The notes under the pieces are model-generated. The model searched no databases, was not told the DNA's origin, and was given only the letters and a program-made list of their open reading frames with translations. From a virus: 64,000 nt of DNA. The position numbers and the translations under genes were made by a program. The DNA lies in the IMG/VR virus record IMGVR_UViG_3300042561_000572, positions 30,156 to 94,155 of that record. One strand, written 5' to 3'. Shown piece by piece: positions 884 to 31,878 of this stretch (position 1 is the first letter of the stretch; the number at the start of each line of letters is the position of its first letter).

Positions 884-1088
884 ATACAACTTTACCTAAT
901 TCATAGTCAAATACTCTCCATCTAAGACTTCTTTTAAATTTAAAAGTATGAAGTCTATTATCATGAGCCATTTCTATAATACTTATGAAGTAATCTAAAT
1001 CATTAGTTATTTTAAAAGTACCTTTATCAATAACCCAATGATTATCTTGTAATGTTTGTATTCTATATCTAATTTTAAACATAAGCAC
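876..1088 (-). CDS. small hypothetical protein
   Basis: 70-aa ORF overlapping the stop of the giant gene. Confidence 0.6.
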   Translation of the reverse strand: MLMFKIRYRIQTLQDNHWVIDKGTFKITNDLDYFISIIEMAHDNRLHTFKFKRSLRWRVFDYELGKVVYE

Positions 1089-4000
1089 TATCTCCTGAAA
1101 CTAAATAAGTTTCACTTCTACTATCACTACTTAAGTTTTCAAACTCAACATCTGTTGCCCAAACACCAACTACAACTGGTGGTACATCTAACTTATCAGG
1201 CACATCTATAAAGTCACTGGACATTGGATCTATTTCAGCTTCACCTCTAGCAGCTATAGCATCAGATAAGTTATCTTGCATTTGAGCCAACTTATTATTT
1301 AAATTATTATCTCCTTGGTTGAAGTTGCTTTTTAATAAACCAGCACTTTGTTGAATACTACTATCAAGCATATTCATAGCTAAAGCACCAACAAATGATC
1401 CAATAATAGCACTAACACCACTCTCTGCTATTGGCACATTATGTCTAAACAAAGGAGCAACAACATTTCTATTAAACAAGTCTGTTAACTTAGGAGTAAC
1501 ATAAGTACCAACTAGACTAAGTGAAGCTTCAGTTGATGCAGCTTTAGCTAAGTTAGTGGCCCAATCTTCATCAGGATTTCTATAAGCTTTACTTCTAAAG
1601 AGAGCACCAGCAGCATTAGCAGCACCTTTACCATGTGGCATGTTATAACCCATTAAACTTAAAGTACCACCAATAACACCTGCTGCATCCATACCAGCTT
1701 GATCATTAGAAGTACCATATATAGCACCACCAATCATACTAAGTAAAGCAGGACCAACTATATTAAATATACCATCAGCAGCTTTAACTTTTAACTCTTG
1801 TCTAGTAGTACCATCATTACCTCTAGCAACATGTTCAGGTTTAAAGTAATCTTTACCCTCCTTACTTAAAGTACCTAACAATAAGCCATTTTCAGCTAAC
1901 AATTCATCTGCTAATGCTTTAGCCTCTGCTTCATTTTTATTTATATTTTTATGCTGACCTACAATCTGAGCATGTATCTTATTATAAGTAACATCACTTA
2001 TTTCACCAGCTTGATTCATAGCAGCAGCAACTTCACTAATAGCTTGTAATTTAAAGCCTTGTGATGTTTTCTTACTTTGTCTATTAATCAAATCACTAAC
2101 TAATTCATTCTTTCTTTCAACCTTACCATCAATGGTTACTTCATGTTGTATTTCAACATGTTTAAGATGCTTATACATTTCTGCCATTTCTTTAGCATTC
2201 TCCTCATCACCACTAAAGTTAGACATCATTTGTCCCATAGCATCAGCATTAGTCAATTTAGGATCATTAACAGCTTTAAACAGTCTGCCCATAACAGAAG
2301 CACCTTCCATGCTAAGTTTACCTTGAGCCATTAACCTATAAGCAGCATTAAACAAATCACCACCTAATAAGCTAGTACCAACCTCTCTAACACTAGAACT
2401 TGTAATGTTTCTTTGCATGTCCTTACTAGCTTTATTTAGATGAACAAATCTATCTAAACCACTACCATAATCACCCATAAATGTCTTAGTTTGAGTGATA
2501 CTAGCATGATGACTAAGTACTAATAGAGAAGCAGTTGATAAGCCACCACTACTTTGTCTAACCTCATTAAGTTTAGCCATATTATCATCAGTCATAGCCA
2601 TTCCCATATGTTCATAAAGCATAGTACCAAAAGCACCATTAGAGTTAGTAATCATCTCTGCTGAGAACCTGTTAACTTGTTCTACTACAGCCTTATCTCT
2701 ATGTTGTTCTGATACATAACCAACACTATAACCACTGGCTCTTGTAGAAAATCCAACTCCTCTACTATTAATACCATCTATAGCATTATATAAACCTTCA
2801 ACTGCTTTAACAGCATCTGCTTTATTCCCCATTGCTAGCTCAGCAAGAGTTAAACTAACACCTTTACTATCACTACCCTTACCTAAAAAGCCATGTAATC
2901 CTTCACTAATAGTCTTTTCCAAAGCTCTATTACTACTAGCTTTATCATCAATCTTTAACTTACCATCCTTACCAATTTCTAATGAACCAAAGTTCTTTTC
3001 AAAGTTAAACATAGTAGTAATACTTCTAAGACTACTACTAACTTTAAACTTAATTAAAGAATCTTCATTTACATCAGACCCCATTAAAGCCATTCCAATA
3101 TCTCTTTGATCTCCAGTTATGTTATAGTCTCCAATGCTGCCATATCTACCTTCTCCATCTTTCCTTTCACCAGTAGAACCAGCAGCATGAATCATCTTAT
3201 TTAAATCCATTAGACCCTTCATACCAGCACCAGGACCAATTTTAGAAGCCATATCATTAACTAAACTTTGTCTTTTACTCTCATCAGCAGTAGTATATTC
3301 TTCTGACATCTTAATAAGTTCAGCCATAACAGAACTAGAATCACCCTTTAGTTTTATACTATCTCTAAGCATCTGTTGAACTGCTTTATTCCAACCTTGC
3401 AATTGTTGTGCTTTATCATATGAAGCTTGTAAGTTAGCCATAAATCTAGTGCCTTCATCTGATGGCATAACAACAGAGTTACTAGCATTATTAACTGGCC
3501 CATGTTGTCCAGTCATTCTGTTCATCTTCTCAGCAATCTGTGGACTATCACCTTCTAATATGTGATACAAACTAACAATAGGAGAATCAGCAACAAAAGT
3601 GCCAAGTAAAGTGTTATAAGTCTTACCTAACACATCACTACCAGCCTCACCTAATGTTTTAGTTAATACATCATATGTTGATTCACCCATACCAATACCT
3701 AAGCCAGCATTAATCTTACTGTATAAAACATTACTAGCTTTACTAGTTGCATCTAACTTACTAAATAGAGTTGTAAAATAAGCCTCTTTATTAACCTCAC
3801 CTTCAAAGTTATGTAAAGTATTACTGCTTTGTTTTAACTCATCCCAAGTAAGTCTCATACTGTTTGTTAAAGCTTCTTGTAACTCTTGTTGCATATCAGT
3901 ATCTTGCAGTTGAGTTGAGTTTAAAGTCATACCAATAGCAGTAAAGAACTGATTCTTATCAGAACCTGTTTCTATGCTTTTTATCATATCATCTAAAGTA

Positions 4001-7000
4001 TTCTTATCAAAGGTTAAACCAACAGAATGTTTACTGCCCAAAGAAGCATTTAACAAGTCCTCAACTCTAGTATTCATTTCACTATTAACACCTTGCATAC
4101 CACCATATAAGCCTTTACCTTGATCTAACATAGCAGCCATAGAACTAACATTAATAGTACCCTGACTTCTAAAACCACCTTCATTACTACCTCTAAAGAA
4201 TCTACTATCAATACCCATATAAGAGGCCACATCTTTTGCCATCTTACTTTGTTTATCAGGAGCATTCATATCCTTTTGCAATGACTTTAAAGCCATAGCA
4301 TCTTCAAATAATTTAGCTTCTTCATTGGCTAATGTCTTCTCTAATTTACTAAGAGCTTCTGTGTCTGATATAGGACCAACAAAAGCTTTCATTGAACTAA
4401 TTTCTTTCTTTTTATGTTCAATTACAAATCTTCTATCATCAATTGTATTAATCTTTTCAGTAACCTTATGTAGCAACGTCATATAGTTATCACCATCAAA
4501 GTCACCTAAGTTACTAGTTAAGAATGACAAACCACTAAAGATTGAAATACTCTTACTTCTATCAACATCAAACCTAACAATATTGTCATCTATTGCTAAG
4601 TTATCAATCATTTTATTGAATTGATCAACACCTCTAATAGCCATTAAAGTAGCAAGATGAGATTCAGTTGAACCATATGGTGCTGATCTCCAGCTTTGAT
4701 TTTGCATGTTATCAAGTTCACTCATACTATTATGAATGTAGCCTAATTCTTGTAATGAATAGTGTAAGAACTTAGTACTTAAAGTGCCTCCTTGATCCTT
4801 ATAAGCAGCCACTTGTTCTTTAATGTTAGTCATATCATTAATCATATAACCAACACTCTTTCTATTAGCAGCTACTATAAAGTGTTCTTGTTCTGACTTA
4901 GCATTCTTAGTAGAAGTAGGAGCAAAGCCCTCCATAAAGTTCTCTAAGTTCTTTATTCTATTGTCAATGTATTCAAGTGTAATCTGTCTAGCAGCTTCAA
5001 AGTTACCACCTGTTTTTGGATCAGCAGTGTCATTAATTAGATCTGTAATACTTTGATGAGTTTGCTTATACACAGTATGTTTACCTCTCATAGCACCCTC
5101 TAATTCCTTGCTATAATGATTAACAAGATCAAGGCCCATGCTATATCTATTCTTCATAGTACTATTATGAATAAAGTCTCTAATCTCATGATTCTTACCA
5201 AGATATATAGCATCTTGGTAACCTCTTTCAGACATCCAATCATTAACAGTACCTATTAAACCTTTATATTCTTCTCTCTTCTTAGGATTAAGACTGTTTT
5301 CAGCTAACTTTGTATCAGCTTTCAACTTAGCAAATTGCAGATTAGCTAATACATAACTAGCAACATATGCCTTATCATAAGCACCAGTTACATCTAAGTT
5401 TTTCTTAACAGTATTAAATGAATTTTGAGCCTTTTCAACAGCAGCATCTAAATCATTTATATCAGTAGTCTTACCAGTTTGTACTTGATTAAGTAAATTA
5501 TGAGCACCACCAATAACTTCAACACCATTCTGCAATTTTAATGCTGCCATAGTTGAAATACCTCTAACAAGCATTTGCTTTTGATAATCTAATACAGTAC
5601 CTAATGACTGATTAAAATCTTGTAGTTGTTTATTACTTTGATAATTCTTAAACTTAGTAGACATCTCACTACCAAGTGTTGTATATGTTAAATGTGCAGC
5701 AGCAGTAACCTCAAATAGTTTCTTTCTAAGACTAGCAATACCTTCAGGTGCTCCATACTTCTCATTAACAAATTGGGGCATAACATTCATGTTAGCAGCT
5801 AAACTTAAGTTAGGAATACCAGTACTAACATAACCTTCAAACTCAGTACCATGACCTGCAACTGCTTTTTGCATTAAAGTATCAGAACTAGCTTCTGATA
5901 TAGCTTGTAATAACTCATCACCAAGATAACCTAATCTAGCAATCATATCAGTCTCTTCAGGGCTTAAATTAACATTGAAGGTGGCACTATTCTTTTGTGC
6001 TGCTCTAGCTTTAGCAACTTTAATCATTACATCATTTTCAGCAGTACCTGGTACAAAATAACTTTGCATATTTAATGTTTTACCAACAATATCACTAACA
6101 AAGTCACCAAAAGATGAACCAACTTGATTTAACAAATCAGCACCAGGCATAAATATATATGTGTTTTGAGTATTACTAAATACAGTATTAACATCTCCAG
6201 TCATTTGATCTACAAGTGGTCCACCAACTACTTTTGGCATTAATATGTTATAAGTCCTATTACCAGTATCTTGTAACATTTGTAGCTTAGGTTGAGTTAT
6301 ATCTGTACCCATACCTTTACTTTGTTCTAAGTTATAAGTTATGGCAGACTTTCTTAAAGCTTCAATTATATGTTGACCAACACGCCTTAATTGACCAGCA
6401 TAATCAGTAAGCTTAGCAGTAGGATCACTATTATGTTTATCCCTATTTAACCCATCAACATATGTTGCTTCAGCAAGAGTTAAATCACCGTTATTATAGT
6501 AATCTTCTACTTTACTAACATCAAAGTTCTTTTTAATAGATGGTTTATAAATAGTTCTATATTCTTTTATTAACTCACTACTATTCTCATTAGCATTATA
6601 ATAAACTCCTAAGAAGTCCCTACCAAAGAAGCCACTCATAGTTACTGGATCTAATGCTTGAATTGCTTGTATACTCTTTAAATACTCTGCACTATCAGCC
6701 ATACCAACACTAATAAGTCCAATCTCTTGAGCAGCAACAACAGTACCTAACACATACGCTAAGTTACCCTTATTACCAGTTCTAGTAAACTGTTTAGATT
6801 GAGCTTCTAATGGTGCTAACAAGTGTTGCATTTCAGTCTTAGCTCTTAAGTTCTTACCAAGAGGATCTTTACTAGCAGAAGGTGATATAGACAATGATAA
6901 TTGCACTGCATAGTTTTGTTGCAAGTATATACCCATTTGATTAGCAAGTTGTTCTTTCTCCTCATTAGTCATATTAAAAGCATTATCACTACCACCTAAA

Positions 7001-10000
7001 GCTGCTGCAATTTCCAACAATGGATCATTTAAAACTACACCACTGTATGCATCATAATTGCCTGTAACTGCATTAGGTGTAGCAGCTCTTGTTAAAGCTC
7101 CTATTTCTGATAGTGGACTTGTCTTTAAAGGACCAATAAAAGAATCATCATTAAACTTACCAGTAGTACCATCATTTTGTCTTACCTTCATTTTAAGCAT
7201 CCAATCAGTAACCATACTAATGTCACCTCTTTGATTCTTAAGCTGACCAAACATATCAATAGCAGTTAACATAGCAGAGACACCTCTAGTATATAAGTCA
7301 CTACTATTAATTACATAACCATCACCACTTCTACTACCAACAGTGTTAACATAACCTTGTAATAAGCCTGTTAAATCTCCACTATCAGTTAATATGGCAT
7401 CTCTAATAGATCCTACAAGTTCCTTATTATTCATAATGAATTGTGGAATACTACCAAAGATATTATCCTTTGATCTAGTAGCTTTACCAGTAAGTACATT
7501 CTGCATTTCAGCCATTCTAATAAAGGTGCCAAACTCACCTTTAATAGCAGCCTTCTTATAAGCTTTAACATATTGATCATTCAACATTAAAGCATCACCT
7601 GGTTTATTCCTTTCATATGAACCATCAGCTATAATGTCTAAACCAAACTGACTAATCAAAGCTGCTGCTAACATTCTATTAGTCTGTTTAACAAGAGTAT
7701 TAGCAAGTTTAGTTCTAACTCCATCAGGACCAGTTACATCTTTAGTAAACAACATAGAAGCATGATCCATAAAGAAGCCACTCTTTAAGTTGTTAGGATT
7801 AATCAAGCCATAAACATCAGATACTTGATTCTTTAAAATACTAGCACTACTTATACCTGCTTCAACTGTTTTAATAGCCCCCATATCATCTTTAAAAGTA
7901 GATTCATAGCCTAATGATTTCATAAAACTACTAAATACACCCTCAAATTGACTACCTTTTAAAGCAGCACCAACACCTTTAAATAAAAGACCAGCAGCAG
8001 TACCTTCATGTCTTCTACCAGAACCAGGTTGTAATATTGGCAAAGCACTTACTTGGTATTTTATTTCATTAGTGCCTGGACTACCACCTTCAACTCTACC
8101 AGCAGTAAGAATAAGATGAACTGAATCTTCACCAGGTCTATTACTAATTGACTTTTGTTTAACAGATGCTACAGGTTTACCAAATAAACTGAAGTTTTCA
8201 ATCTGTCCAATTAAATAATCAGCACTACCAGTACCTCCAACATAAGTTACATTATCTCCACCATCTGCTCTAATTTGAACAACCTTATTAACACTTCTAT
8301 CATATACAAAAGTATCACCTTCATTAATAACAAGGCCATTCTTTTGCAACATATCACCACTAAAAGTTACTTCACCAACATGTGTTCTAGCATCTAACAT
8401 AGAAGCCTTAATACCAGTATTAGTAACAGTTGGCATACCAGCATAATGTTGTGTTCTAAATTTAGGATTAGTATAGAAGTGATCACTATAACCACCATTA
8501 AGTTGTAATAATACAAACTGTTGTTTATCTCTTCTACCTCCAACAACTGAACCAACACTATTAGCAACACTACTATAACTAATCATCTTCATTCTAAACA
8601 TGTTGTTAAGTATTTGATTAGTATCTTCTCTCTCTGTCTCACTTAAGTTTAAATCTTTAAACTTATCAAATAATTCTTTTCTCTGCGCTAATACAAAGTT
8701 ATAAGCACTTTCATTTAGCACTGTTCTAACATCAGTATCAAACATAGAACCTAAGTTTACTTCTTCTGCTGTTAGATAATTATGTATAAACTTCTTAGCT
8801 TTATCATCAGTTAATAAAGATGTTAATTGAGCTATATTATCTGCAATGCCCTTTCTTTGACCTGCATTATATTCTTTTAAACTACCCTTTTCTAATATAG
8901 TCTTAGAAGCCTCTTCAGATACTTCATACATTAATCTACTACCAAGAGCATTCTTAATTCTTTGGTTAATTTGTGCTGGTTTACTAGGATCAAGATTAAA
9001 TAACATACCTCTTTGATTACCTTTAACATTTAACAATGTCATAATCTCATCAACTTCACTGTCTTTAAAGTCACCACTATTAACAAGTTTATCCTTACTA
9101 ATAAGAACACCAATACCAGTTCCTTCAAGGATATCAATACTATTCCTATCAGTTGGAAACTTATTTCTAACACCAAATGATTCTAGTTGATAACCTTTCT
9201 TATTCTGAGTAGAAACACCTTCAGCAACACCACCTAAATAAAACCTTTCATTACCTTCATAATCAGTACCAAAACCACTATAAACACTAACATCTCTAGC
9301 AAATGTTCTAGCATATTGTAATGTTTGTAGAAGAGGGTTCTTACTAACATCAGCAATGTTTAGTAAACTCATAGCTCTTTCATTACCAGCATCTAAACCA
9401 TAATTAATATACTTACTAGCAGGAACACCTGCCGCATAACTAATAGCCTGGTGAGCTTGTAAATAAGGATCAAATATAGTTTTAGATAACTCTGTCATCT
9501 GACTATTTAAATCTCTTTCAGCATTATATTTACTATTAACTCTAAGAACATCTAAGGTTAAATCTTGATAACCTTCTTGACCTAATAGTTGACCAATAGC
9601 ATGTATAGCTGTAAAAACATCATCACCACTTTTAGCATTTCTAATATTTTGTATTTGATCTGTTAACTTAATGCCAAACTTTGTACCTTCAACATTAACA
9701 TTAACATTTAACCTGTTATAAACATCTACACCAGCTAACTGTCTAGTAGTATCTAAATAACTAATACCTTCAGCATTAAATCTACTTTCCAATGCATTAG
9801 CAAGGTCTTTATATCCACCCCTATCAAACAAGTTATTAGATCTACCCCTATCAAACAAGTTATTAGAATAAGCTAATCCATCTGTATTTATGCCAACCTT
9901 ATTATCAGCTAACATGTATCTAGTATCACCCATCAAAGAAATAGCAAAGTCTAATGCTAAACCTCTTTTAGTATCAGCATCAACACCTATTAACTTACTA

Positions 10001-13000
10001 GCAGGATTACTAATAGCTTGTTTATAAGCCATCTCACCAATCATAGTAGCAAAGATACTAGTAGTATTATCAATACTAGACATCTCAGCAGATTGACCAT
10101 GTTCTAAAACACCAGGTCTATCCCCAAACTTCCAACTAATCTTTCCACCAGTATTATTAGTAAAGTTACTGTTATATATTAACTTACCTTCCTTTTGAAA
10201 GAACACAGGACCAGGTTGATTAGCAGTACCTTGTAACATACCAAGAGTATAAGTAAGCCTACTAGTATTAGTGTTTAAACCTAATAACTTACCAGGCATA
10301 ATAGCAACTTCTAACATAAGAGGAGTGCCAAATCTATCATACTTTCTAGTAATAGACATAGCATCCCCTAACCCTTTACTCATCTCCCTTAAAGTACTTT
10401 CTAACTTTAAAAGATCACCAGTATTAGATTGTCTAGCCCAGTATGGTAAACCTTCAATGGAGGGTAACAAACCATTATCTAACCTATTACCATAGTTAAG
10501 TTGAGCATAAGACATAGTTACAGCCTTATTATTATCTTTTAACTCATACATTTCTTCTTCTGCTAATAAAGAATATTCATTACTAAAGCCTAAGTTTAAA
10601 GCCTCAATGTTATCTCTAAAGTCTTGGTCATAGCCAGTATTACTTTCCTTAGCAGCATCAATGAATAACTTTCTATTAACATAAACAGCACCCATTTCAT
10701 CACTAACATATGGATCATTACCTCCAACACCAAGATACTTATTATCAGGTCTAATATCAACACCTAATGAGTTCATACTAAAGTTAGAAGAGTTAGCAGC
10801 AGTACCAGCTATTTGCTGAGTATATTTAACATATGTACTACCATCTTTTCTTGTTGCTGATTCATATCTATAAGCACTAAAAGACTTACTATGTTGTCTA
10901 GGAACATCAGCACCAGCCATATTACCACTAGCAATAGCAAGCATTTGTAATGCAGTTAAGTTCTTACCATCAGTAATATCTAATTGAGCATTAATAAGTT
11001 CAACCTTTCTATTTAGTGATTGATTACTCTCTGTTACAGCATTAACAAAGCCACTAATAGAGCCACTAAATTCATTATGAAACCTAGCACCAAACCTATC
11101 ATTTAAATAATTCCAAGTAGGTTCTATGACCTGTTTAGTAAAGTTATTAGTATCAACTACAACCTTACTAATACCCATTGCTATCAAACTAAAGTTCTTT
11201 CTTTGTATGTCTCTATACAATTCATATCTAACATCTTGTCTTGATCTAAACTGACCACTTCCAAGAGTATTGGAACTAAATTTACCCATTTCACCAATCT
11301 CTTGACTGGTAGCATCATTAAATCTATTAGCTCTATTATTAGGATCACTACCATTAACATCTAAATGATTAACATGTAATAAGTATGCTTGATCAAGCAC
11401 CATAGTCATACCTAAATCACCAGTATATTTACCCTTTAATTCGTCTAAACTACTATTCATTTCTCTACCACTTTCAGTGTGTAAATAGTCAACAGTAGCC
11501 TTCAATGTATACATAATATCAGTTGCAAACTTAATATTAGATTGACTACTTATAGTTGTTATTTGTTGTTTTTGAGCAGCAACAACTTGTTCATACATAA
11601 GAGCAGATACAGTCTTCTTATATTTATTAACCTTATTATCATTTAACTTTTGAGGATCAAACTTACCTAATAACAAATTAAGTTGTGCTAACCCAGAGAA
11701 GTCTTTAAAAGATGTCCAATTATTTAATAGTTCTGGTAACCTGTTAATATATTCTTGTCTCTTTTTAATTAAATCCTTATTACTATGAAACATGCCTAAC
11801 ATTTCATAGTTGGAGCCAGCTTTAAATATAGAATCACCAACAGGACTAGTTAAGTTAATAGAGCCTAACACAGCAACCTGATCTGTTATATAAACCTTTC
11901 TATGATGAGCAGGGCCAGCAAGCTTAATGTTAAACACACCAGGAACCCCATCTTTACCATTAACAATCTCTTCTGCTTCTTGTCTAGTTTTTTTCTTGCT
12001 ATTAACAAGTTCATTGATAATAGTTTCTTTTAACTTCTCCATCTTTGCAACTTCAAGTATATTAGGCCCAAAGATAGCAGCACTAGTACCTTCATCACCT
12101 GGAATAGGAGAACCAACAATCATATTAACTTTAAAGCCATAGTTCTCATTACCTATGATTTCTCTATAGATCTTACTAACAACAACATCACTAATAGCTC
12201 TATTTTGATATTGGAAAGTATCAATTGTAATGCTTTCTTTAGCAGATTCAAACATAGAAACAAATGGTAATATACCAGGTCTAGTTTGATACTTAACATC
12301 ATCAATCACTTTAGCTGCTTTTTGTTTATAACTATTGTTAATACTAGTATCAATAGCTTTAATGTTTCTTCTATTTATACTAACACCACCCTTAGTTAAC
12401 TCATTAACATAAGACTTACTTCTAACAAAGTCTAAGTCAGTAATAGTCTTACCAGCTTTACTTCTACTACTATTAAAAGTACCTTCATTAATTGCTCTAA
12501 GCTCATCTGCTGAGTTACCATCAACAGGAACAAGACCACTACCAAATAGATCAGCATTAACTAATCTCTCTAATGTCTCTTGTCCTCTAGCTTCCATATC
12601 TCTAATATTAGAACTAGATTGAACACGACTAAAAGCATTAGCATACTGATAGCTTTGATCTAAGTAATAATTATCTTTAGCTTTAGTAGGATCTTCAATG
12701 TATAAACCTTTTTTAGCTAAAACATTACCAAATATATTTTCAAATACCACTTGACTAGCATAAGCTTTAGTCTCAGTAGGATCAATTCTATAAGCTTCAC
12801 CAACTAAGAACTTAAGACTCTTTCTACTATCTAATAAGCTATTAGAAACATTACTATCAAACTCAGTAAACAGTCTAGTAGTAACAGTTTGACTAAGACC
12901 TAATACAAACTTATTAGAGAATGCTTCTCTTTTACCAGTAGTAGTAACATGTTTAGGATCAAACATACCACCTGATATATCACTAGTCATACCAATAGCA

Positions 13001-13182
13001 TTTTGCCAATCACTATTAGTTGAGCCTAACTCATTAGTAAAGACTTCACTGTTATACAAACCATAACCAACAGAAGTTGCAAGAGCACTTCTATTACCTT
13101 GTTCTATAAAACCATGAAGACTACTAACAGATTGTCTTCTATGTTCTAAATGATATTCAGTGTTTGAGAAATAACTTGACAT
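1075..13182 (-). CDS. giant multidomain virion protein: PLD(HKD) domains + single-chain two-barrel RNA polymerase + tape-measure-like C-terminus
   Basis: HRKVYITD...GSINL (aa ~427); beta-like GGYSD, LQPGSGRRH...FKGV and DVYGLINP; beta-prime-like GHGTEFEG...MP, RSAP and NLGDFDGD (aa 2894-2898, nt 4489-4503); hydrophobic Gly/Ala segments near the C-terminus. Confidence 0.8.
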   Translation of the reverse strand: MSSYFSNTEYHLEHRRQSVSSLHGFIEQGNRSALATSVGYGLYNSEVFTNELGSTNSDWQNAIGMTSDISGGMFDPKHVTTTGKREAFSNKFVLGLSQTVTTRLFTEFDSNVSNSLLDSRKSLKFLVGEAYRIDPTETKAYASQVVFENIFGNVLAKKGLYIEDPTKAKDNYYLDQSYQYANAFSRVQSSSNIRDMEARGQETLERLVNADLFGSGLVPVDGNSADELRAINEGTFNSSRSKAGKTITDLDFVRSKSYVNELTKGGVSINRRNIKAIDTSINNSYKQKAAKVIDDVKYQTRPGILPFVSMFESAKESITIDTFQYQNRAISDVVVSKIYREIIGNENYGFKVNMIVGSPIPGDEGTSAAIFGPNILEVAKMEKLKETIINELVNSKKKTRQEAEEIVNGKDGVPGVFNIKLAGPAHHRKVYITDQVAVLGSINLTSPVGDSIFKAGSNYEMLGMFHSNKDLIKKRQEYINRLPELLNNWTSFKDFSGLAQLNLLLGKFDPQKLNDNKVNKYKKTVSALMYEQVVAAQKQQITTISSQSNIKFATDIMYTLKATVDYLHTESGREMNSSLDELKGKYTGDLGMTMVLDQAYLLHVNHLDVNGSDPNNRANRFNDATSQEIGEMGKFSSNTLGSGQFRSRQDVRYELYRDIQRKNFSLIAMGISKVVVDTNNFTKQVIEPTWNYLNDRFGARFHNEFSGSISGFVNAVTESNQSLNRKVELINAQLDITDGKNLTALQMLAIASGNMAGADVPRQHSKSFSAYRYESATRKDGSTYVKYTQQIAGTAANSSNFSMNSLGVDIRPDNKYLGVGGNDPYVSDEMGAVYVNRKLFIDAAKESNTGYDQDFRDNIEALNLGFSNEYSLLAEEEMYELKDNNKAVTMSYAQLNYGNRLDNGLLPSIEGLPYWARQSNTGDLLKLESTLREMSKGLGDAMSITRKYDRFGTPLMLEVAIMPGKLLGLNTNTSRLTYTLGMLQGTANQPGPVFFQKEGKLIYNSNFTNNTGGKISWKFGDRPGVLEHGQSAEMSSIDNTTSIFATMIGEMAYKQAISNPASKLIGVDADTKRGLALDFAISLMGDTRYMLADNKVGINTDGLAYSNNLFDRGRSNNLFDRGGYKDLANALESRFNAEGISYLDTTRQLAGVDVYNRLNVNVNVEGTKFGIKLTDQIQNIRNAKSGDDVFTAIHAIGQLLGQEGYQDLTLDVLRVNSKYNAERDLNSQMTELSKTIFDPYLQAHQAISYAAGVPASKYINYGLDAGNERAMSLLNIADVSKNPLLQTLQYARTFARDVSVYSGFGTDYEGNERFYLGGVAEGVSTQNKKGYQLESFGVRNKFPTDRNSIDILEGTGIGVLISKDKLVNSGDFKDSEVDEIMTLLNVKGNQRGMLFNLDPSKPAQINQRIKNALGSRLMYEVSEEASKTILEKGSLKEYNAGQRKGIADNIAQLTSLLTDDKAKKFIHNYLTAEEVNLGSMFDTDVRTVLNESAYNFVLAQRKELFDKFKDLNLSETEREDTNQILNNMFRMKMISYSSVANSVGSVVGGRRDKQQFVLLQLNGGYSDHFYTNPKFRTQHYAGMPTVTNTGIKASMLDARTHVGEVTFSGDMLQKNGLVINEGDTFVYDRSVNKVVQIRADGGDNVTYVGGTGSADYLIGQIENFSLFGKPVASVKQKSISNRPGEDSVHLILTAGRVEGGSPGTNEIKYQVSALPILQPGSGRRHEGTAAGLLFKGVGAALKGSQFEGVFSSFMKSLGYESTFKDDMGAIKTVEAGISSASILKNQVSDVYGLINPNNLKSGFFMDHASMLFTKDVTGPDGVRTKLANTLVKQTNRMLAAALISQFGLDIIADGSYERNKPGDALMLNDQYVKAYKKAAIKGEFGTFIRMAEMQNVLTGKATRSKDNIFGSIPQFIMNNKELVGSIRDAILTDSGDLTGLLQGYVNTVGSRSGDGYVINSSDLYTRGVSAMLTAIDMFGQLKNQRGDISMVTDWMLKMKVRQNDGTTGKFNDDSFIGPLKTSPLSEIGALTRAATPNAVTGNYDAYSGVVLNDPLLEIAAALGGSDNAFNMTNEEKEQLANQMGIYLQQNYAVQLSLSISPSASKDPLGKNLRAKTEMQHLLAPLEAQSKQFTRTGNKGNLAYVLGTVVAAQEIGLISVGMADSAEYLKSIQAIQALDPVTMSGFFGRDFLGVYYNANENSSELIKEYRTIYKPSIKKNFDVSKVEDYYNNGDLTLAEATYVDGLNRDKHNSDPTAKLTDYAGQLRRVGQHIIEALRKSAITYNLEQSKGMGTDITQPKLQMLQDTGNRTYNILMPKVVGGPLVDQMTGDVNTVFSNTQNTYIFMPGADLLNQVGSSFGDFVSDIVGKTLNMQSYFVPGTAENDVMIKVAKARAAQKNSATFNVNLSPEETDMIARLGYLGDELLQAISEASSDTLMQKAVAGHGTEFEGYVSTGIPNLSLAANMNVMPQFVNEKYGAPEGIASLRKKLFEVTAAAHLTYTTLGSEMSTKFKNYQSNKQLQDFNQSLGTVLDYQKQMLVRGISTMAALKLQNGVEVIGGAHNLLNQVQTGKTTDINDLDAAVEKAQNSFNTVKKNLDVTGAYDKAYVASYVLANLQFAKLKADTKLAENSLNPKKREEYKGLIGTVNDWMSERGYQDAIYLGKNHEIRDFIHNSTMKNRYSMGLDLVNHYSKELEGAMRGKHTVYKQTHQSITDLINDTADPKTGGNFEAARQITLEYIDNRIKNLENFMEGFAPTSTKNAKSEQEHFIVAANRKSVGYMINDMTNIKEQVAAYKDQGGTLSTKFLHYSLQELGYIHNSMSELDNMQNQSWRSAPYGSTESHLATLMAIRGVDQFNKMIDNLAIDDNIVRFDVDRSKSISIFSGLSFLTSNLGDFDGDNYMTLLHKVTEKINTIDDRRFVIEHKKKEISSMKAFVGPISDTEALSKLEKTLANEEAKLFEDAMALKSLQKDMNAPDKQSKMAKDVASYMGIDSRFFRGSNEGGFRSQGTINVSSMAAMLDQGKGLYGGMQGVNSEMNTRVEDLLNASLGSKHSVGLTFDKNTLDDMIKSIETGSDKNQFFTAIGMTLNSTQLQDTDMQQELQEALTNSMRLTWDELKQSSNTLHNFEGEVNKEAYFTTLFSKLDATSKASNVLYSKINAGLGIGMGESTYDVLTKTLGEAGSDVLGKTYNTLLGTFVADSPIVSLYHILEGDSPQIAEKMNRMTGQHGPVNNASNSVVMPSDEGTRFMANLQASYDKAQQLQGWNKAVQQMLRDSIKLKGDSSSVMAELIKMSEEYTTADESKRQSLVNDMASKIGPGAGMKGLMDLNKMIHAAGSTGERKDGEGRYGSIGDYNITGDQRDIGMALMGSDVNEDSLIKFKVSSSLRSITTMFNFEKNFGSLEIGKDGKLKIDDKASSNRALEKTISEGLHGFLGKGSDSKGVSLTLAELAMGNKADAVKAVEGLYNAIDGINSRGVGFSTRASGYSVGYVSEQHRDKAVVEQVNRFSAEMITNSNGAFGTMLYEHMGMAMTDDNMAKLNEVRQSSGGLSTASLLVLSHHASITQTKTFMGDYGSGLDRFVHLNKASKDMQRNITSSSVREVGTSLLGGDLFNAAYRLMAQGKLSMEGASVMGRLFKAVNDPKLTNADAMGQMMSNFSGDEENAKEMAEMYKHLKHVEIQHEVTIDGKVERKNELVSDLINRQSKKTSQGFKLQAISEVAAAMNQAGEISDVTYNKIHAQIVGQHKNINKNEAEAKALADELLAENGLLLGTLSKEGKDYFKPEHVARGNDGTTRQELKVKAADGIFNIVGPALLSMIGGAIYGTSNDQAGMDAAGVIGGTLSLMGYNMPHGKGAANAAGALFRSKAYRNPDEDWATNLAKAASTEASLSLVGTYVTPKLTDLFNRNVVAPLFRHNVPIAESGVSAIIGSFVGALAMNMLDSSIQQSAGLLKSNFNQGDNNLNNKLAQMQDNLSDAIAARGEAEIDPMSSDFIDVPDKLDVPPVVVGVWATDVEFENLSSDSRSETYLVSGDSAYV
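9817..9867. repeat. in-frame tandem duplication with 27-nt period (SNNLFDRG x2)
   Basis: acccctatcaaacaagttattaga occurs twice, separated by tct. Confidence 0.9.
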
Positions 13183-13349: not shown

Positions 13350-13751
13350 ATGTCCACAGCATCAACAGTATTTGAAATTCCTCTTCCTTCTGGTAAAGTT
13401 ATCTCTTTTAGACTTCCTACATACAGAGATAGACAAGCAGCAGTTAAGAGATTTAGACAACAACAAAATGAAGTAGGTTGGTCAATTGAAGAGTTTTTAG
13501 CATTTGGTATGCTTGAATTTGTAGATGGACTGCCTTTGCAAGCTGGTCTTGACCCTATTGATCAAGTATCTGAATGGTCATTGAAAGATGTAAATATTTA
13601 TCTAGAAGTATTTATGCCCTTAGTATTTCCTGATGATGTTGCTAAGCAAAGAGCACAAGACATGGTTAAGGCACTTCTTGAGGGAAAGTCAGTAGTGAAA
13701 CAAGTGGCCTCACCTATTACTTCAGCCCCTACTACAGCTATAACCGCATAA
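13350..13751 (+). CDS. tail assembly chaperone (lambda gpG-like)
   Basis: FEIPLPSGKVISFRLPT N-terminus typical of tail/hub assembly chaperones; contains in-frame G GGA AAG slippery site. Confidence 0.75.
   Translation: MSTASTVFEIPLPSGKVISFRLPTYRDRQAAVKRFRQQQNEVGWSIEEFLAFGMLEFVDGLPLQAGLDPIDQVSEWSLKDVNIYLEVFMPLVFPDDVAKQRAQDMVKALLEGKSVVKQVASPITSAPTTAITA
13682..13688 (+). promoter_or_regulatory. programmed -1 ribosomal frameshift site GGGAAAG
   Basis: GAG GGA AAG in frame; the -1 frame is open from here into ORF 13769..14179; same heptamer as lambda G-T. Confidence 0.8.
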
Positions 13752-13768
13752 CAGATGTTGCAATATCG

Positions 13769-14179
13769 TTGGCAGTATTATATAAACTGCCAATGGTAAC
13801 AACTAGAAAGTGTATATATAACTATGACTCTAACTATCCTGAAAAGTATTATAGAGACATACCAATATCAGAAGATTTAATATTATTAAGAGAGTTAACG
13901 TTTGAGGGTTATGCCAATCACTTCATAGAAGCATACAACTTAAATAACTACATACAAATTAGTGGCACTATACAGATACCCTATGGTAATGACTGGCTAG
14001 ACTTAGATGAAGTTGAGAGAAGAGCATTTGAAATTGTAGTTAACAAAGTAAACATTGAAAGACACAAGGCAGCTCAAGCAGAAAAAGAAGAACTAAAGAA
14101 AAACCTTCAATCTTCAACTCAAAATCATTCTAGGTCAATGTTTGATGGTATACCAATGTCTAGTATAAGTATGAGATAA
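13769..14179 (+). CDS. C-terminal part of frameshifted tail chaperone (gpT-like)
   Basis: Weak TTG start; in the -1 frame of the upstream gene; WLDLDEVERRAF resembles gpT/T4 gp51-like motifs. Confidence 0.7.
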   Translation: MAVLYKLPMVTTRKCIYNYDSNYPEKYYRDIPISEDLILLRELTFEGYANHFIEAYNLNNYIQISGTIQIPYGNDWLDLDEVERRAFEIVVNKVNIERHKAAQAEKEELKKNLQSSTQNHSRSMFDGIPMSSISMR

Positions 14180-14188
14180 CAACACTAA

Positions 14189-15658
14189 ATGGCAACAAAT
14201 AATACAAAAGCAACTACATCAACTAAGAAGGAGGAGACTAAACAAAAAGCATCATCTCCTCCTTCTAGTGGAGAAATAAACTTCTCTAAATACAAAACAA
14301 ATCCACCATTACAAGTGTTTGGAGATACTTCTAACAAAGTAAGACCAAACACTTACAAACAATTAGGTAGAGCCACCTCATTTGTAAGTAATGGTGATTC
14401 TTTGTATGTAAATACAGGGCCACATCAATATGCTTTAGCAACATGGGACTATGCTAGAAAGAATGAACCAATAATATCTGATGGTTTAGATAAGATAGTA
14501 TTATCAGTTTTGGCTAAGATAGGTTCCTATAATCATCCTAATCCAGACATAAGAAAGTTTATAAAAGCTAACTTAAAACATAAGATTAGACACTGGATTG
14601 AAAATATAACATATTCTATGTTGTGGTCAGGTAAGTCTGTATCAGAGATAATATGGGAAAAGAAGTGGGATGGTGACACCCCTCAGTTATGGGTAAAAGA
14701 TTTAATAAACTATCATACATCTCAAGTTATATTAAGATTAAATAACTATGGTACTTTAACACATGGAGAACAAGTGTTAAATAGCCAATTTAATACAGGT
14801 GTTTGGGTTCCTAGACCTATTTTAACTGAAGATAAAAAGATGTATAAAGTTGATAGAAACAACACAGGATCACATATAAGACTTGCTAAAGACAAGTTAA
14901 TTATAGCTACATATAAAGATGAAGGTAATAATCCTCATGGCACACCAGCTTTATATGCAGCTATTCAATGGTCTTTATACAAAGCAGCTTTTGTTGATAT
15001 GTATTCTATAGCATTAGACAGATATGGAACACCTTTAATGTATTTTATAGTGCCAGCCACACAAACAACTGAAGACATGGAAGAAGTTGATGGTACTATT
15101 AGAAAAAAGATGTTTAGAGAAGCATTACAAGATGAACTACAAGACTTAAGAAGTGGTTCTGTTTTAATACTTGAAAGACAAGGAAACAAAGATGCACCAG
15201 AACCAAAAGTAGAGTCATTAACAACTGGTAATAACTTTGGAGATTCATTTATAACAGCCATTGATAAGTGTGATCAAAACATGTTACATGCTATGGGAAT
15301 ACCTAACTTACTTATAAAGAATCAAGACTTAGGATTAGGTTCTGGTGGAACAACTGAAAAGCAAGTTGAAATGTTTGAAATGTCTATTGAACAGATAGCT
15401 ATAAAAGTAAGTGAAGTATTAATTGATCAACTTATAAAGACTTTAATAACTTATAACTTTTCACCAAAACTAGTAGATCATGCTGATAACTATGGAGAAT
15501 TTATAATCAAACCAATAAGATATGTTGATTATAAAGTAATGGCAGAAAGTGCAAAGATATTAACAGAAGCAGGAGTTATAGCACCATTAGTAAGTGAAAT
15601 GGATAGAAAATTTATTAGAAATCAACTAGGAATACCTAATGATCATGAGGATGTATAA
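14189..15658 (+). CDS. portal protein (DUF935/Mu gp29-like)
   Basis: 489 aa; GKSVSEIIW, GNNPHGTPAL, LDRYGTPL, FITAIDKCDQNMLHAM and LITYNF follow the DUF935 portal pattern. Confidence 0.8.
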   Translation: MATNNTKATTSTKKEETKQKASSPPSSGEINFSKYKTNPPLQVFGDTSNKVRPNTYKQLGRATSFVSNGDSLYVNTGPHQYALATWDYARKNEPIISDGLDKIVLSVLAKIGSYNHPNPDIRKFIKANLKHKIRHWIENITYSMLWSGKSVSEIIWEKKWDGDTPQLWVKDLINYHTSQVILRLNNYGTLTHGEQVLNSQFNTGVWVPRPILTEDKKMYKVDRNNTGSHIRLAKDKLIIATYKDEGNNPHGTPALYAAIQWSLYKAAFVDMYSIALDRYGTPLMYFIVPATQTTEDMEEVDGTIRKKMFREALQDELQDLRSGSVLILERQGNKDAPEPKVESLTTGNNFGDSFITAIDKCDQNMLHAMGIPNLLIKNQDLGLGSGGTTEKQVEMFEMSIEQIAIKVSEVLIDQLIKTLITYNFSPKLVDHADNYGEFIIKPIRYVDYKVMAESAKILTEAGVIAPLVSEMDRKFIRNQLGIPNDHEDV

Positions 15659-16724: not shown

Positions 16725-17267
16725 TTATATAGGAATGTTATCAGCAAAATCTTGATATAGTATTAACATTTTAGGTAAGAAATCTCCATTCATTTGTGTA
16801 TCTTTAATACTAATACCATGTTCAACATTACCAAATACTTCTATTAATGATCTATCAATTCTGTCTCTTATCTTGATAGAGTTTTCATATGCAGTGGAAA
16901 AATAATAATTATAATCTTTAGGTATTTTAGTTTCTTCATTTAAATAATTTAAAGGATAAATCTTTAACCAAAGATCTTCTAATACCAACACCACATCTTG
17001 TTTATCAAAAGTTGTATAATGTTTAAACATTAAACCTTCATAGAGATTATAAGCTATTAGATTTAATATAAAATTATAAACACCCATTAATGTTATGTTA
17101 TTAAAAAGCCCTCTATTATCTTGATTCCTTAAATCATAACTTATCAACTCATAAAAGATACTTTTACTAGATAGACTATCAACAAACTGCTTAGCATTAA
17201 TAGATAGTAAATAATCTTTTTCTTTATCTAATATTCTAATTTGATCATATAGGGATTGCATTTGCAA
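16725..17267 (-). CDS. hypothetical protein, tandem paralog family copy 4 (probable start ATG 17261)
   Basis: ILDKEKDYLL...DFLPKMLILYQDFADNIPI shared with neighbours. Confidence 0.8.
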   Translation of the reverse strand: MQMQSLYDQIRILDKEKDYLLSINAKQFVDSLSSKSIFYELISYDLRNQDNRGLFNNITLMGVYNFILNLIAYNLYEGLMFKHYTTFDKQDVVLVLEDLWLKIYPLNYLNEETKIPKDYNYYFSTAYENSIKIRDRIDRSLIEVFGNVEHGISIKDTQMNGDFLPKMLILYQDFADNIPI

Positions 17268-17781
17268 AGTCCTGATATAATATTAACATTTTAGGTAGAA
17301 AGTCATCAGGCATATCTTGAGCCCATATAGTTATAGTATGCTCAAATACTTGTAGTTTTAGATTGCCAACAGATATATTATCAAATAATTTGATGGAGTT
17401 CCTAGACCTATAAGGATAAGCAATTAAGTATTCATATTCTAAAGTTGTTTTATCTGGTTGATAATTTACATTATTAATGTGTAAACCAAAACTTCTTAGA
17501 TCAATTTGTTTATCCTGTTTGTTATAAATAAGATGATGTCTAAAAACTAATGCCTCATATAAATTATGACATATTACATTCAAAATACCATTATAAATAC
17601 CTACCAAAGATATATTATTATAACTTAGTCTAACATCTTTTAGATCCCTCTCAATTGCTAATTTATCAAAGCTTAATAACTCATAAAAGATACTAGCACT
17701 ACTTAAACTGTCAACAAACTGCTGAGCATTAACATTTAATAAGTAATCCTTTTCTTTATCTAATATTTTAATTTGGGCCAT
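17245..17781 (-). CDS. hypothetical protein, tandem paralog family copy 3
   Basis: ILDKEKDYLLNVNAQQFVDSLSS...DFLPKMLILYQDFANAIPI. Confidence 0.8.
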   Translation of the reverse strand: MAQIKILDKEKDYLLNVNAQQFVDSLSSASIFYELLSFDKLAIERDLKDVRLSYNNISLVGIYNGILNVICHNLYEALVFRHHLIYNKQDKQIDLRSFGLHINNVNYQPDKTTLEYEYLIAYPYRSRNSIKLFDNISVGNLKLQVFEHTITIWAQDMPDDFLPKMLILYQDFANAIPI

Positions 17782-17785
17782 TTAT

Positions 17786-18337
17786 TTATACTGGAATATT
17801 ATCTACAAAGTCATTATAAAGCACTAACATCTTACTTATAAACTCACCACAATCTTGTATATAAAAGTTAAATTTATTATTAACACTAAGTACATCTTTT
17901 AATACTAAAAAATCCTTTATTACATAGTTAATAGGAGCAGGATGAAAAGGACTTAGAGGCATCATATTTTTAGTTTCTAATACATATTCATAATCTTTTT
18001 GAAAATGTTTATTAGGATTAAACTGCCAACAATCATCTTCTGGTCTAATATAAAAAGTTATAATTAAACCTTTATATAATGTAATTCTAATATCATTATT
18101 AGGATGTCTTAAATTTAAAGCCTCTTGTACGTTGGAGTTAATAATATTTACAATAAAATTATAAAGACCTATTATAGTAACAATACTAAAATTATATTGT
18201 ATTGCATCCTTGTTAGTAAGTAAGCTTTCAGCACCTAACATCTCATAAAATAAGCTTTTACTATATAACTTATCTATAAATGTTTCAGCATTAACATTTA
18301 ACAAGTACTGTTTCTCTTTTTCAGTAATAGTAATCAC
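17786..18337 (-). CDS. hypothetical protein, tandem paralog family copy 2
   Basis: TEKEKQYLLNVNAETFIDKL...EFISKMLVLYNDFVDNIPV. Confidence 0.8.
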   Translation of the reverse strand: MITITEKEKQYLLNVNAETFIDKLYSKSLFYEMLGAESLLTNKDAIQYNFSIVTIIGLYNFIVNIINSNVQEALNLRHPNNDIRITLYKGLIITFYIRPEDDCWQFNPNKHFQKDYEYVLETKNMMPLSPFHPAPINYVIKDFLVLKDVLSVNNKFNFYIQDCGEFISKMLVLYNDFVDNIPV

Positions 18338-22443: not shown

Positions 22444-23301
22444 ATGAGAAACAAATTATCTGGTATATATTCTTTTACAAATAAAACAACTGGTAAAAGA
22501 TATATTGGACAAACAGTATATTTAAATGGTAGAAAAGGAGATCATTTATTAAATCTTAGAAGGAATCAACATGATAATGATTATCTTCAAAAAGCTTTTA
22601 ATAAATATGGTGAAAAAGACTTTATATTTGAAGTGTTAGAAGTGGTGCCAAAGTTAGAAGATGGTACTAATGATAAAGTTAAATTAACTGAAAGAGAGCA
22701 GTACTGGATGGATTTTTATAAGTCTTATGATAGAGATTATGGTTATAATATTAATCCTTCAGCAAGTATGAATCCAATGCAGGGTAAAACACATACCCCA
22801 GAAGCTAGAAAGAAGATTAGTGAAGCAGCTTATAATAGACCTCCTAGAAAAGTAATTTTACCTACATATATTCCTAATCCTGATATTAAAGATAGTATAG
22901 ACAGTAAATTTGAATATACTGTAGAACATATTAATGGTAATACATATATTTTAGATGATAATAGTTTTATAGATTTTTGCAGACAATTACATTTAGATGA
23001 TGCTAGATTATTTAGATGTTTATACTTTAAAGAGTTTTATTATGGATTAAAAGGCTCTATAAAAGTATTAAATAAGTGGGGAGAATATCATATACATCAG
23101 TGTAATACTCAACAGAAAAACGCCGTAGTATATAGATATTATTTAAAAGATGAAACTGGAACAGAACATATAACTGATAATCTAAATAATTTTTGTAGGA
23201 TTAATAGATTAAGCAGAACACATATGGGAAATGTAGTAAATAAAAACAAATACTATAAAGGATGGACTGGTTATAAAGTTTCTCTAAAAGATATAAAATA
23301 A
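22444..23301 (+). mobile_element. free-standing GIY-YIG homing endonuclease with NUMOD3-like motif
   Basis: SGIYSFTNKTTGKRYIGQT, LTEREQYW, GYN and NPMQGKTHTPEARKKISEA. Confidence 0.9.
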
Positions 23302-31056: not shown

Positions 31057-31878
31057 ATGTTAGACATTTATAAAGCTCCTGTTAATAATATAGGATTGGA
31101 CCCTATACAAGGTTTTGACATTGCTGCTTGGATGCAAGATTCAGCAAGCGGTCAAATAGCTTTGTTTGGTGACTTTCAATCTATTACATTAACAATTAGA
31201 GATAGTACAGAAACTTATTTACCATTAGGCACCAGATTTCCAGTGTACTTAAATGGTGAAATTCAAATAGCATTTGTTATTGAACAAGGTTTAGTTGATA
31301 TGAACTTCATGCAAAGAACCTTTGGTGTTCAGAACATGGTAAGAGAACAACTTGTTACTAGAGGTCCTAGATTCCAACTTACATTTGATGCTAATGCCTA
31401 TGAACTAAATAAAAATTATGTAGACATTGCTAATGAGAGTGGTAAAGTATCGACTGAAATAAACTATAGAACAGGTGGTACTACTTTTAATCAAATTGTA
31501 GGTGGATCAAATGCTAAATTTGCTAAAAGCAGCTTAGGGGGGTCTGGTAACGAAAAAGTTAATAAAGGTCAAGTTCCTCTTGCACAAGGTAGATATGAAC
31601 TACAAAGATGTAAGATTGACTCTTTATCTGTTGGTATCATGCCTGGTAGAAGAGTTATAGCACAACGTTGGGAAGGAGTAGCAGAAGGTATTAGATTTAT
31701 ACCTGAATCTTTACAAGACTTTAGAAGTAATAATCCTGATAATCCTGGCCCTGCTTTTAGAGGCGGTAATTTAACTAGTGATGGTAGTGGTAATATTAGT
31801 GTTGGGCTTCCAGCTAATACAATTACTAATATTAATAATATTAATACTGGTGGTGGTATTGGTGGTATTTTAGTTTAA
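31057..31878 (+). CDS. tail tube protein
   Basis: Follows sheath; DPIQGF, GDFQSITL, YLPLG...YLNGE, YELQRCKI and WEGVAEGI. Confidence 0.8.
   Translation: MLDIYKAPVNNIGLDPIQGFDIAAWMQDSASGQIALFGDFQSITLTIRDSTETYLPLGTRFPVYLNGEIQIAFVIEQGLVDMNFMQRTFGVQNMVREQLVTRGPRFQLTFDANAYELNKNYVDIANESGKVSTEINYRTGGTTFNQIVGGSNAKFAKSSLGGSGNEKVNKGQVPLAQGRYELQRCKIDSLSVGIMPGRRVIAQRWEGVAEGIRFIPESLQDFRSNNPDNPGPAFRGGNLTSDGSGNISVGLPANTITNINNINTGGGIGGILV

Follow-up and report, generated by a model that had tools for sequence, protein, structure and literature searches.

The 64,000-nucleotide stretch of viral DNA analysed here (IMG/VR record IMGVR_UViG_3300042561_000572, positions 30,156 to 94,155; hereafter the window, counted from its first letter) encodes, as one open frame on the minus strand (1075-13182), a 4,035-aa protein of an uncultured contractile-tailed phage. 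Residues ~294-884 of this protein are confirmed to be a real two-lobed phosphodiesterase module of the phospholipase D (PLD) superfamily, and the invariance of its catalytic-type residues suggests that the module is apparently active. Our favoured reading as a whole, to which we give about even odds (probability roughly 0.5), is that a competent two-lobed PLD forms part of a packaged giant protein and acts on nucleic acid at the start of infection. PLD-fold enzymes themselves are well known; new here is an undescribed, strictly conserved giant-protein architecture, in which the PLD module is accompanied by a polymerase-like DFDGD loop far downstream in the same polypeptide.

A two-lobed PLD module in a giant phage protein

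The first nucleotide of residue i in the giant open reading frame (ORF) lies at window position 13182-3(i-1). The features on which the analysis draws are the following, with window coordinates and strand.

1075-13182 (-): giant ORF P0001, 4,035 aa in a single frame; its full-length homologues have 3,300-6,500 aa, and it matches phrog_31006, the family of Ma-LMM01 gp080.
10531-12303 (-): two-lobed PLD-superfamily module, aa ~294-884, delimited by the family hidden Markov model (HMM), which covers aa 291-884, by AlphaFold and by VIA-align.
11548-12303 (-): lobe 1, aa ~294-545, a canonical HKD lobe with helical inserts; Pfam PLDc_2 matches aa 309-481, and single-lobe nucleases align here.
10531-11547 (-): lobe 2, aa ~546-884, a degenerate HKD lobe, modelled as a second PLD lobe and aligning with the second lobe of F13, PLD3/4 and phosphatidylserine synthase (PSS).
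11854-11904 (-): HKD motif 1, H427-x-K429-x4-D434-x6-G440-S-x-N443, from conservation and the Pfam PLDc motif.
10885-10893 (-): HxK of half-site 2, H764-S-K766, with S798-S-N800 at 10783-10791 and E829 (of DEMG) at 10696-10698.
4489-4503 (-): DFDGD loop, aa 2894-2898, with invariant R2832 and P2835 upstream at nucleotides 4678-4689.
1375-1773 (-): two hydrophobic Gly/Ala-rich segments near the C-terminus, aa 3804-3822 and 3918-3936, from a Kyte-Doolittle scan.
13350-15658 (+): divergent conserved neighbours, namely two small ORFs (133 and 136 aa) and the portal gene (phrog_113).

The initial annotation had reported a full PLD signature with its HKD residues at nucleotides 11881-11904, and H427-x-K429-xxxx-D434 lies exactly there, all of the quoted peptides being present in the translation. 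The motif of lobe 1 reads H427-R-K429-VYIT-D434-QVAVL-G440-S-I-N443, followed by N458-Y-E460, with G440-S-x-N443 at 11854-11865 and E460 at 11803-11805. A second, degenerate half-site had been claimed at ~10885 and is also real: the motif of lobe 2 begins with H764-S-K766 at that place and continues, after a variable insert, with S798-S-N800 and D828-E829-M-G. The interval of 10780-12260 then assigned to the PLD domains falls inside the module but clips its edges, as the module extends over ~10531-12303.

The residues expected to form the active site are conserved without exception. When 54 family proteins were aligned to the family HMM, H427, K429, N443 and E460 were unchanged in 54/54, H764, K766 and N800 in 53/53, and E829 in 51/51, the remainder of the 54 being alignment gaps. 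In homologues, each lobe thus keeps its H, K, N and E unchanged, the point on which the initial annotation had made its claim depend. Position 434 is less strict (D in 41 proteins, E in 11, N or Q in 2), and lobe 2 never has the motif Asp, none being found at +7; its insert between K and N is variable and is 17 residues shorter in some close homologues. In a separate alignment of 40 sequences, mostly 25-30% identical, H427, K429, N443, E460, H764, K766 and N800 were all invariant, and few stretches of the 4,035 residues are as well conserved as the PLD blocks, which compare with the DFDGD block in this respect.

Profile searches recognise lobe 1 near their thresholds. With the whole protein as query, Pfam PLDc_2 matched aa 309-481 at 25 bits (E 1.8e-5) against a cut-off of 27, which was exceeded with the excised module (29 bits) and in a six-frame search of the genome (31.8 bits); the same model was matched by 12 of 15 relatives, and the Pfam PLDc motif scored 18.2 bits at window positions 11845-11907. 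PLDc_2 covers lobe 1 only, lobe 2 having no Pfam match, and the two lobes aligned to each other by hhalign gave a non-significant E of 0.16, with VD, HxK, SxN and E in the same order. PLDc_3 (PF13918) did not match the module, and NCBIfam matched neither the module nor the N-terminal 249 aa. A search of the PDB with the single sequence of the module gave no match, and one with the family profile gave non-significant matches only, such as the poxvirus nicking-joining enzyme (E 0.55) and PLD4 (E 0.92), both at the HKD motif.

The predicted fold is that of a pseudo-dimeric PLD, as had been anticipated. An AlphaFold model of aa 250-900, built on a 21-row alignment, has a mean pLDDT of 77.6 and a pTM of 0.82, and its top Foldseek matches in the PDB all belong to the PLD superfamily (probability 1), including human PLD1/2, Streptomyces PLD, phosphatidylserine synthase, NucT, Zucchini, PLD3 and F13. 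VIA-align, a fold comparison independent of Foldseek, placed two-lobed PLDs over model residues 45-651, with Z-scores of 16.9 for F13 (3.0 A, 273 residues), 16.2 for the PLD 7e0m, 15.2 for PSS, 15.1 for PLD4, 14.9 for PLD3 and 14.9 for the C-domains of PPK1. One-lobed nucleases aligned over model residues 45-294 (NucT Z 14.3, Nuc 13.8, Zucchini 12.7, SauUSI 11.9, BfiI 10.6), and folds other than PLD reached Z 4.9 or lower. Given that the lobes can be superposed jointly on two-lobed enzymes of solved structure, and given the high pTM, the two half-sites of the model almost certainly face one pocket.

It is conceivable that such a fold has lost its catalytic activity and now serves in scaffolding or binding, as it does in FAM83 or TrmB; non-enzymatic PLD folds of these types are among the matches (Z 9.4-13.9), and the second HKD motif is without its Asp. 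This explanation is highly improbable, as not one of the eight catalytic-type residues (an H, K, N and E per lobe) varies among proteins that are only ~25% identical, which is hard to explain without catalysis.

A fixed architecture and a putative polymerase partner

A database search for the architecture, a check that the initial annotation had proposed, recovered a family of ~50 clusters of giant proteins (3,300-6,500 aa) that are headed by the PLD module and, when complete, carry the DFDGD loop, including gp080 of the Microcystis phage Ma-LMM01. An exhaustive search of 1.8 billion representatives yielded 39 clusters, nearly all of 3,500-4,800 aa with the module at ~aa 150-900. Phage-database matches to the module were confined to the giant 'hypothetical protein' of the Microcystis phages Ma-LMM01, MaMV-DC, MaMV-DH01 and others, with ~25% identity extending over both lobes. 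Stand-alone relatives of the PLD module (327-1,043 aa) were not found, and the short matches P0026, P0047, P0052, P0053 and P0054 are apparently pieces of giant proteins.

In complete family members the DFDGD loop lies ~2,400 residues downstream of the PLD module, and in one set a D[hydrophobic]D[GAST]D loop occurs at the corresponding place in each of the 46 family proteins that reach 3,300 aa or more. The two centres were never found apart among full-length members: a search with the DFDGD region alone recovered eight proteins that were new relative to the PLD searches, seven of which carry the full PLD module, the eighth being annotated as partial, and conversely the DxDGD loop is present in every full-length PLD-bearing member.

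Two relatives from public metagenomes mark the range of the family. P0061, with 6,490 aa, has both the PLD module and the DFDGD loop. P0051, with 2,381 aa, starts inside the PLD module (positions 197-545 of the family HMM), lacks the DFDGD loop and has a peptidase domain of the M78/IrrE type at its end; it may be truncated or a true variant.

The DFDGD signature of the giant protein consists of R2832 and P2835 and, after ~60 residues, N-L-G-D2894-F-D-G-D2898-x-Y. Two family alignments (A3, A5) show no variation in its R, P, G, N and D-x-DGD, and it resembles the beta-prime NRAP...NADFDGD and the RNP...DFDGD stretch of gp96 from the Thermus phage P23-45. In two-barrel RNA polymerases, a DxDGD loop in the beta-prime-like barrel binds metal, and two double-psi beta-barrel domains make up the active site. 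The earlier suggestion that the PLD domains are fused to a virion RNA polymerase finds support in the invariant R-x-x-P...N-L-G-DFDGD-x-Y signature, but fold and profile searches added nothing beyond the motif. An AlphaFold model of aa 2095-3294 has a pLDDT of 59.7 and a pTM of 0.41, the motif region being modelled as a helix with pLDDT below 50; with this low-confidence model, Foldseek found no polymerase in the PDB, and a wide VIA-align search returned helical bundles only. The Pfam RNA polymerase models PF00623, PF05183 and PF00562 did not match at E up to 10, and a family profile found no polymerase in the PDB. An hhalign comparison with P23-45 gp96 gave an alignment of 19 columns at the motif only (probability 3.7%), and the ESM Atlas returned only unnamed viral clusters, with a best score of 0.77.

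These negative results do not refute the polymerase idea, since gp96, a proven phage enzyme, has sequence similarity to RNA polymerases only at its DFDGD loop (PMC10770324) and is equally undetectable outside it, and phi14:2 gp66 is nearly so, its limited similarity being to one barrel only (bioRxiv 10.1101/2020.03.07.982082). On the strength of its conserved residues, the DFDGD-bearing partner is probably a polymerase, though by no wide margin of confidence.

Proposed role of the PLD module at the start of infection

The window comes from a 94-kb IMG/VR record that is estimated to be 56% complete, with a GC content of roughly 30%. Among its gene products are a portal and a capsid protein, a tail sheath with a baseplate wedge subunit, and a tail lysin of the lysozyme/M23 type; the source is thus a phage with a contractile tail and a genome of roughly 170 kb. 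A megablast search with 25 kb gave no match among phage records. Twenty-one related loci were taken from IMG/VR, and in all of those reaching the portal (18/18, Ma-LMM01-like loci included) the giant gene stands head-to-head with the small ORF sm133, the portal gene, a protease-like ORF and the capsid gene. In the RNA-seq study of Ma-LMM01, gp080 showed no expression in the two earliest samples but was transcribed at 3-6 h, falling into class B5 as do most virion genes (Table S3, PMC5780444). Based on this gene position and on the expression timing of the Ma-LMM01 orthologue, it is likely that the giant protein is made with the virion proteins, packaged, and ejected with the DNA.

In the reading that we favour, each lobe would contribute a His-Lys-Asn-Glu set to one common active site, and catalysis would proceed via a covalent phospho-histidine intermediate. 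The giant protein would be packaged in the virion and delivered along with the DNA, and at the very start of infection, close to the putative polymerase centre, its PLD would cut nucleic acid, the target being either a single strand of DNA or RNA or else the end of a DNA molecule. The PLD would not be a destroyer of the host genome. Wholesale degradation of host nucleic acid, one of the functions put forward initially, is a poor fit, as host transcripts still make up ~67% of the total at 6 h of Ma-LMM01 infection (PMC5780444), and the persistence of host transcription makes a bulk destroyer of host DNA unlikely.

Nucleic acid is the substrate that we tentatively favour over membrane lipid, at somewhat less than even odds. 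This leaning has three sources: the structure-based identity of lobe 1 is highest to nucleases (NucT 20%, Nuc 18%, SauUSI 16-17%, against 8-14% for most lipid enzymes and 15% for the PLD 7e0m), the two-lobed relatives include the PLD3/4 exonucleases, and the module is fused to a putative polymerase.

Alternatively, the module may be a phospholipase or transphosphatidylase that remodels the lipids of the host inner membrane locally, for instance by making phosphatidic acid, and so helps the giant protein and the DNA across the envelope. Several of the top fold matches act on lipids or are associated with membranes (F13, Z 16.9; PLD 7e0m, 16.2; phosphatidylserine synthase, 15.2; P. aeruginosa PLD 7v53, 12.4). 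The last structure, which we take to be the type VI secretion system effector PldA, also provides an analogy, as PLD effectors (Tle5/PldA) are fired by a related contractile machine and the tail of this phage is contractile; in addition, hydrophobic Gly/Ala-rich segments occur near the C-terminus of the same polypeptide. These segments and the PLD are, however, at opposite ends of the protein, and the net acidic charge of the module would be unexpected for docking on anionic bacterial membranes. Furthermore, the gene lies in the head cluster and not in that of the tail tip, the phage has a distinct tail lysin that combines lysozyme and M23 peptidase domains, and no sequence features specific to lipid PLDs were found in the module. 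A lipid substrate is thus unlikely, though it ranks next after nucleic acid.

A further set of candidates comprises other phosphodiester or phosphoanhydride substrates (envelope polymers, nucleotide-based immune signals or polyphosphate) and the formation of a covalent link between protein and nucleic acid without hydrolysis. The C-domains of polyphosphate kinases (Z 14.9) and Tdp1 (Z 9.4) are among the fold matches, lobe 2 is Tdp1-like in having HxK...N without Asp and a long variable spacer, and the scarcity of conserved basic residues would fit a small or unusual substrate. On the other hand, Tdp1 scores well below the compact PLDs, polyphosphate kinase domains are not known to have the HxK motif that is invariant here, and nothing speaks specifically for any of these activities, which we regard as improbable.

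Several observations weigh against a packaged, nucleic acid-cutting PLD joined to a polymerase. The lipid enzymes F13, PSS and PLD 7e0m tie with the nucleases in fold Z-score. Throughout the family, the net charge of the module ranges from -27 to +2, neutral to acidic, and besides the two catalytic lysines only one basic position, K/R301, is conserved, a combination unlike that of a nuclease that binds DNA non-specifically. Beyond the DFDGD motif, neither fold prediction nor profile searches point to an RNA polymerase, and a literature search found no virion proteomics showing that gp080 is packaged. Finally, SigA-like promoters were reported for the early genes of Ma-LMM01, and host transcription persists (PMC5780444), which together weaken the case both for an injected destroyer of host DNA and for a virion polymerase of early genes.

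A more specific version of the favoured reading is an 'enter, cut, transcribe' machine, in which a nuclease of the PLD3/4 or nicking-joining type would nick, resect or covalently hold the leading end of the incoming genome and thereby expose a single-stranded template for a two-barrel RNA polymerase acting in cis. Such a machine would explain why the PLD and DFDGD centres are never apart, but we consider it a long shot. If it exists, a phage group described in print as wholly dependent on the host polymerase carries a polymerase of its own.

What sets this family apart is a conserved, apparently active PLD at the N-terminal end of a protein of 3,300-6,500 residues that is encoded with virion genes, and its invariable pairing with a DFDGD loop of polymerase-like character. 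One member comes from Ma-LMM01, a model bloom cyanophage which, like MaMV-DC, can be grown in culture and which has been described as using the host polymerase only. Should the protein be packaged and both centres be active, it would represent a new kind of injected multi-enzyme and would give a testable handle on the start of infection.

Neighbouring genes and comparison with known systems

Several other genes of the window and of related loci deserve mention. A 285-aa ORF resembling homing endonucleases of the GIY-YIG/NUMOD3 type (22444-23301, +; Pfam PF01541, E 8e-7) directly follows the major capsid gene. Between the portal gene and the protease-like gene, on the opposite strand, there are three adjacent paralogous ORFs of ~180 aa (16725-17267, 17245-17781 and 17786-18337, all -), which cross-match the same two ORFs in related loci. 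A 386-aa protein (37575-38735, +) with an N-terminal lysozyme-like region and a C-terminal M23-type metallopeptidase is probably the tail-associated cell-wall lysin. In Ma-LMM01, gp083 (NC_008562, 1361-2701) is the positional counterpart of the ORF that matches the portal protein of the window (E ~1e-85 in the Ma-LMM01-like loci L020-L024), and its annotation as a 'tail protein' is probably wrong. After the sheath gene, a tube-like ORF (31057-31878, matching an unnamed PHROG family only) and two small ORFs, there is a 954-aa ORF (32985-35849, +) whose central part contains two hydrophobic segments (aa 289-307 and 406-424) and whose only family match is phrog_34291; it is plausible that this ORF encodes the tape measure protein, in which case the giant protein, whose gene belongs to the head cluster, need not serve as one.

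Ma-LMM01 gp080 had already been named automatically as a 'PLD phosphodiesterase domain-containing protein' in UniProt (A0A7J4), and is a 'hypothetical protein' in GenBank. A full-text literature search found no described fusion of a PLD to an RNA polymerase, in agreement with the initial annotation, and searches combining PLD or HKD with virion, two-barrel or jumbo phage returned no paper that describes or interprets gp080 or such an architecture.

The closest known counterpart is gp080 itself (YP_851094.1, 3,562 aa; UniProt A0A7J4; phrog_31006), which likewise has an N-terminal two-lobed PLD with a DFDGD loop ~2,200-2,400 residues later, and whose gene adjoins the head genes of a contractile-tailed phage. 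The identity in tblastn is ~25% over both lobes, and the gp080 model was the best match in BFVD (E 1.6e-28, TM 0.64). The protein studied here is ~470 residues longer, and its phage has a GC content of roughly 30%, whereas MaMV-DH01, a relative of Ma-LMM01, has 45%.

Among enzymes of solved structure, vaccinia F13 (9FHK) and the human 5' exonucleases PLD3 and PLD4 (8S86, 8V08), which cut single-stranded nucleic acid, are the best matches (Z 14.5-16.9, root-mean-square deviation 3.0-3.5 A, ~275-290 aligned residues) and have, as here, two HKD lobes of one chain around one site. The poxvirus nicking-joining enzyme, virion-associated according to its PDB entry name, is also two-lobed and was matched only non-significantly at the HKD motif. 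In contrast to these compact two-lobed PLDs, with which it shares 8-11% identity, the module has a second lobe with a variable insert and without the motif Asp, as well as large helical inserts between and within the lobes, and it is embedded in a protein of 4,035 aa. The single-HKD nucleases Nuc, NucT and Zucchini superpose on lobe 1 (Z 12.7-14.3, 2.5-3.1 A) with the highest structure-based identity seen (15-20%), and the catalytic set H-x-K ... N ... E is the arrangement of Nuc. Unlike these enzymes, which are homodimers of one lobe, the module has two different lobes fused in one chain.

The PLD effectors of type VI secretion (P. aeruginosa PldA/Tle5, 7V53) share with the module the two-lobed fold (Z 12.4) and are delivered by a contractile injection machine; they are stand-alone lipid-targeting toxins with a much larger PLD, whereas the PLD here is a module of a giant protein. 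The virion two-barrel RNA polymerases are known from the Thermus phage P23-45, where gp96 is fused to the tape measure protein (PMC10770324), and from the Cellulophaga phage phi14:2, where the enzyme is gp66 (bioRxiv 10.1101/2020.03.07.982082). Like the protein described here, both are giant phage proteins recognised mainly by a DFDGD/DFDID loop. They are delivered with the DNA, as is likely for the protein here. No PLD domain has been reported for either of them, and in contrast to the gp96 fusion, the phage studied here has a separate tape-measure candidate of 954 aa.

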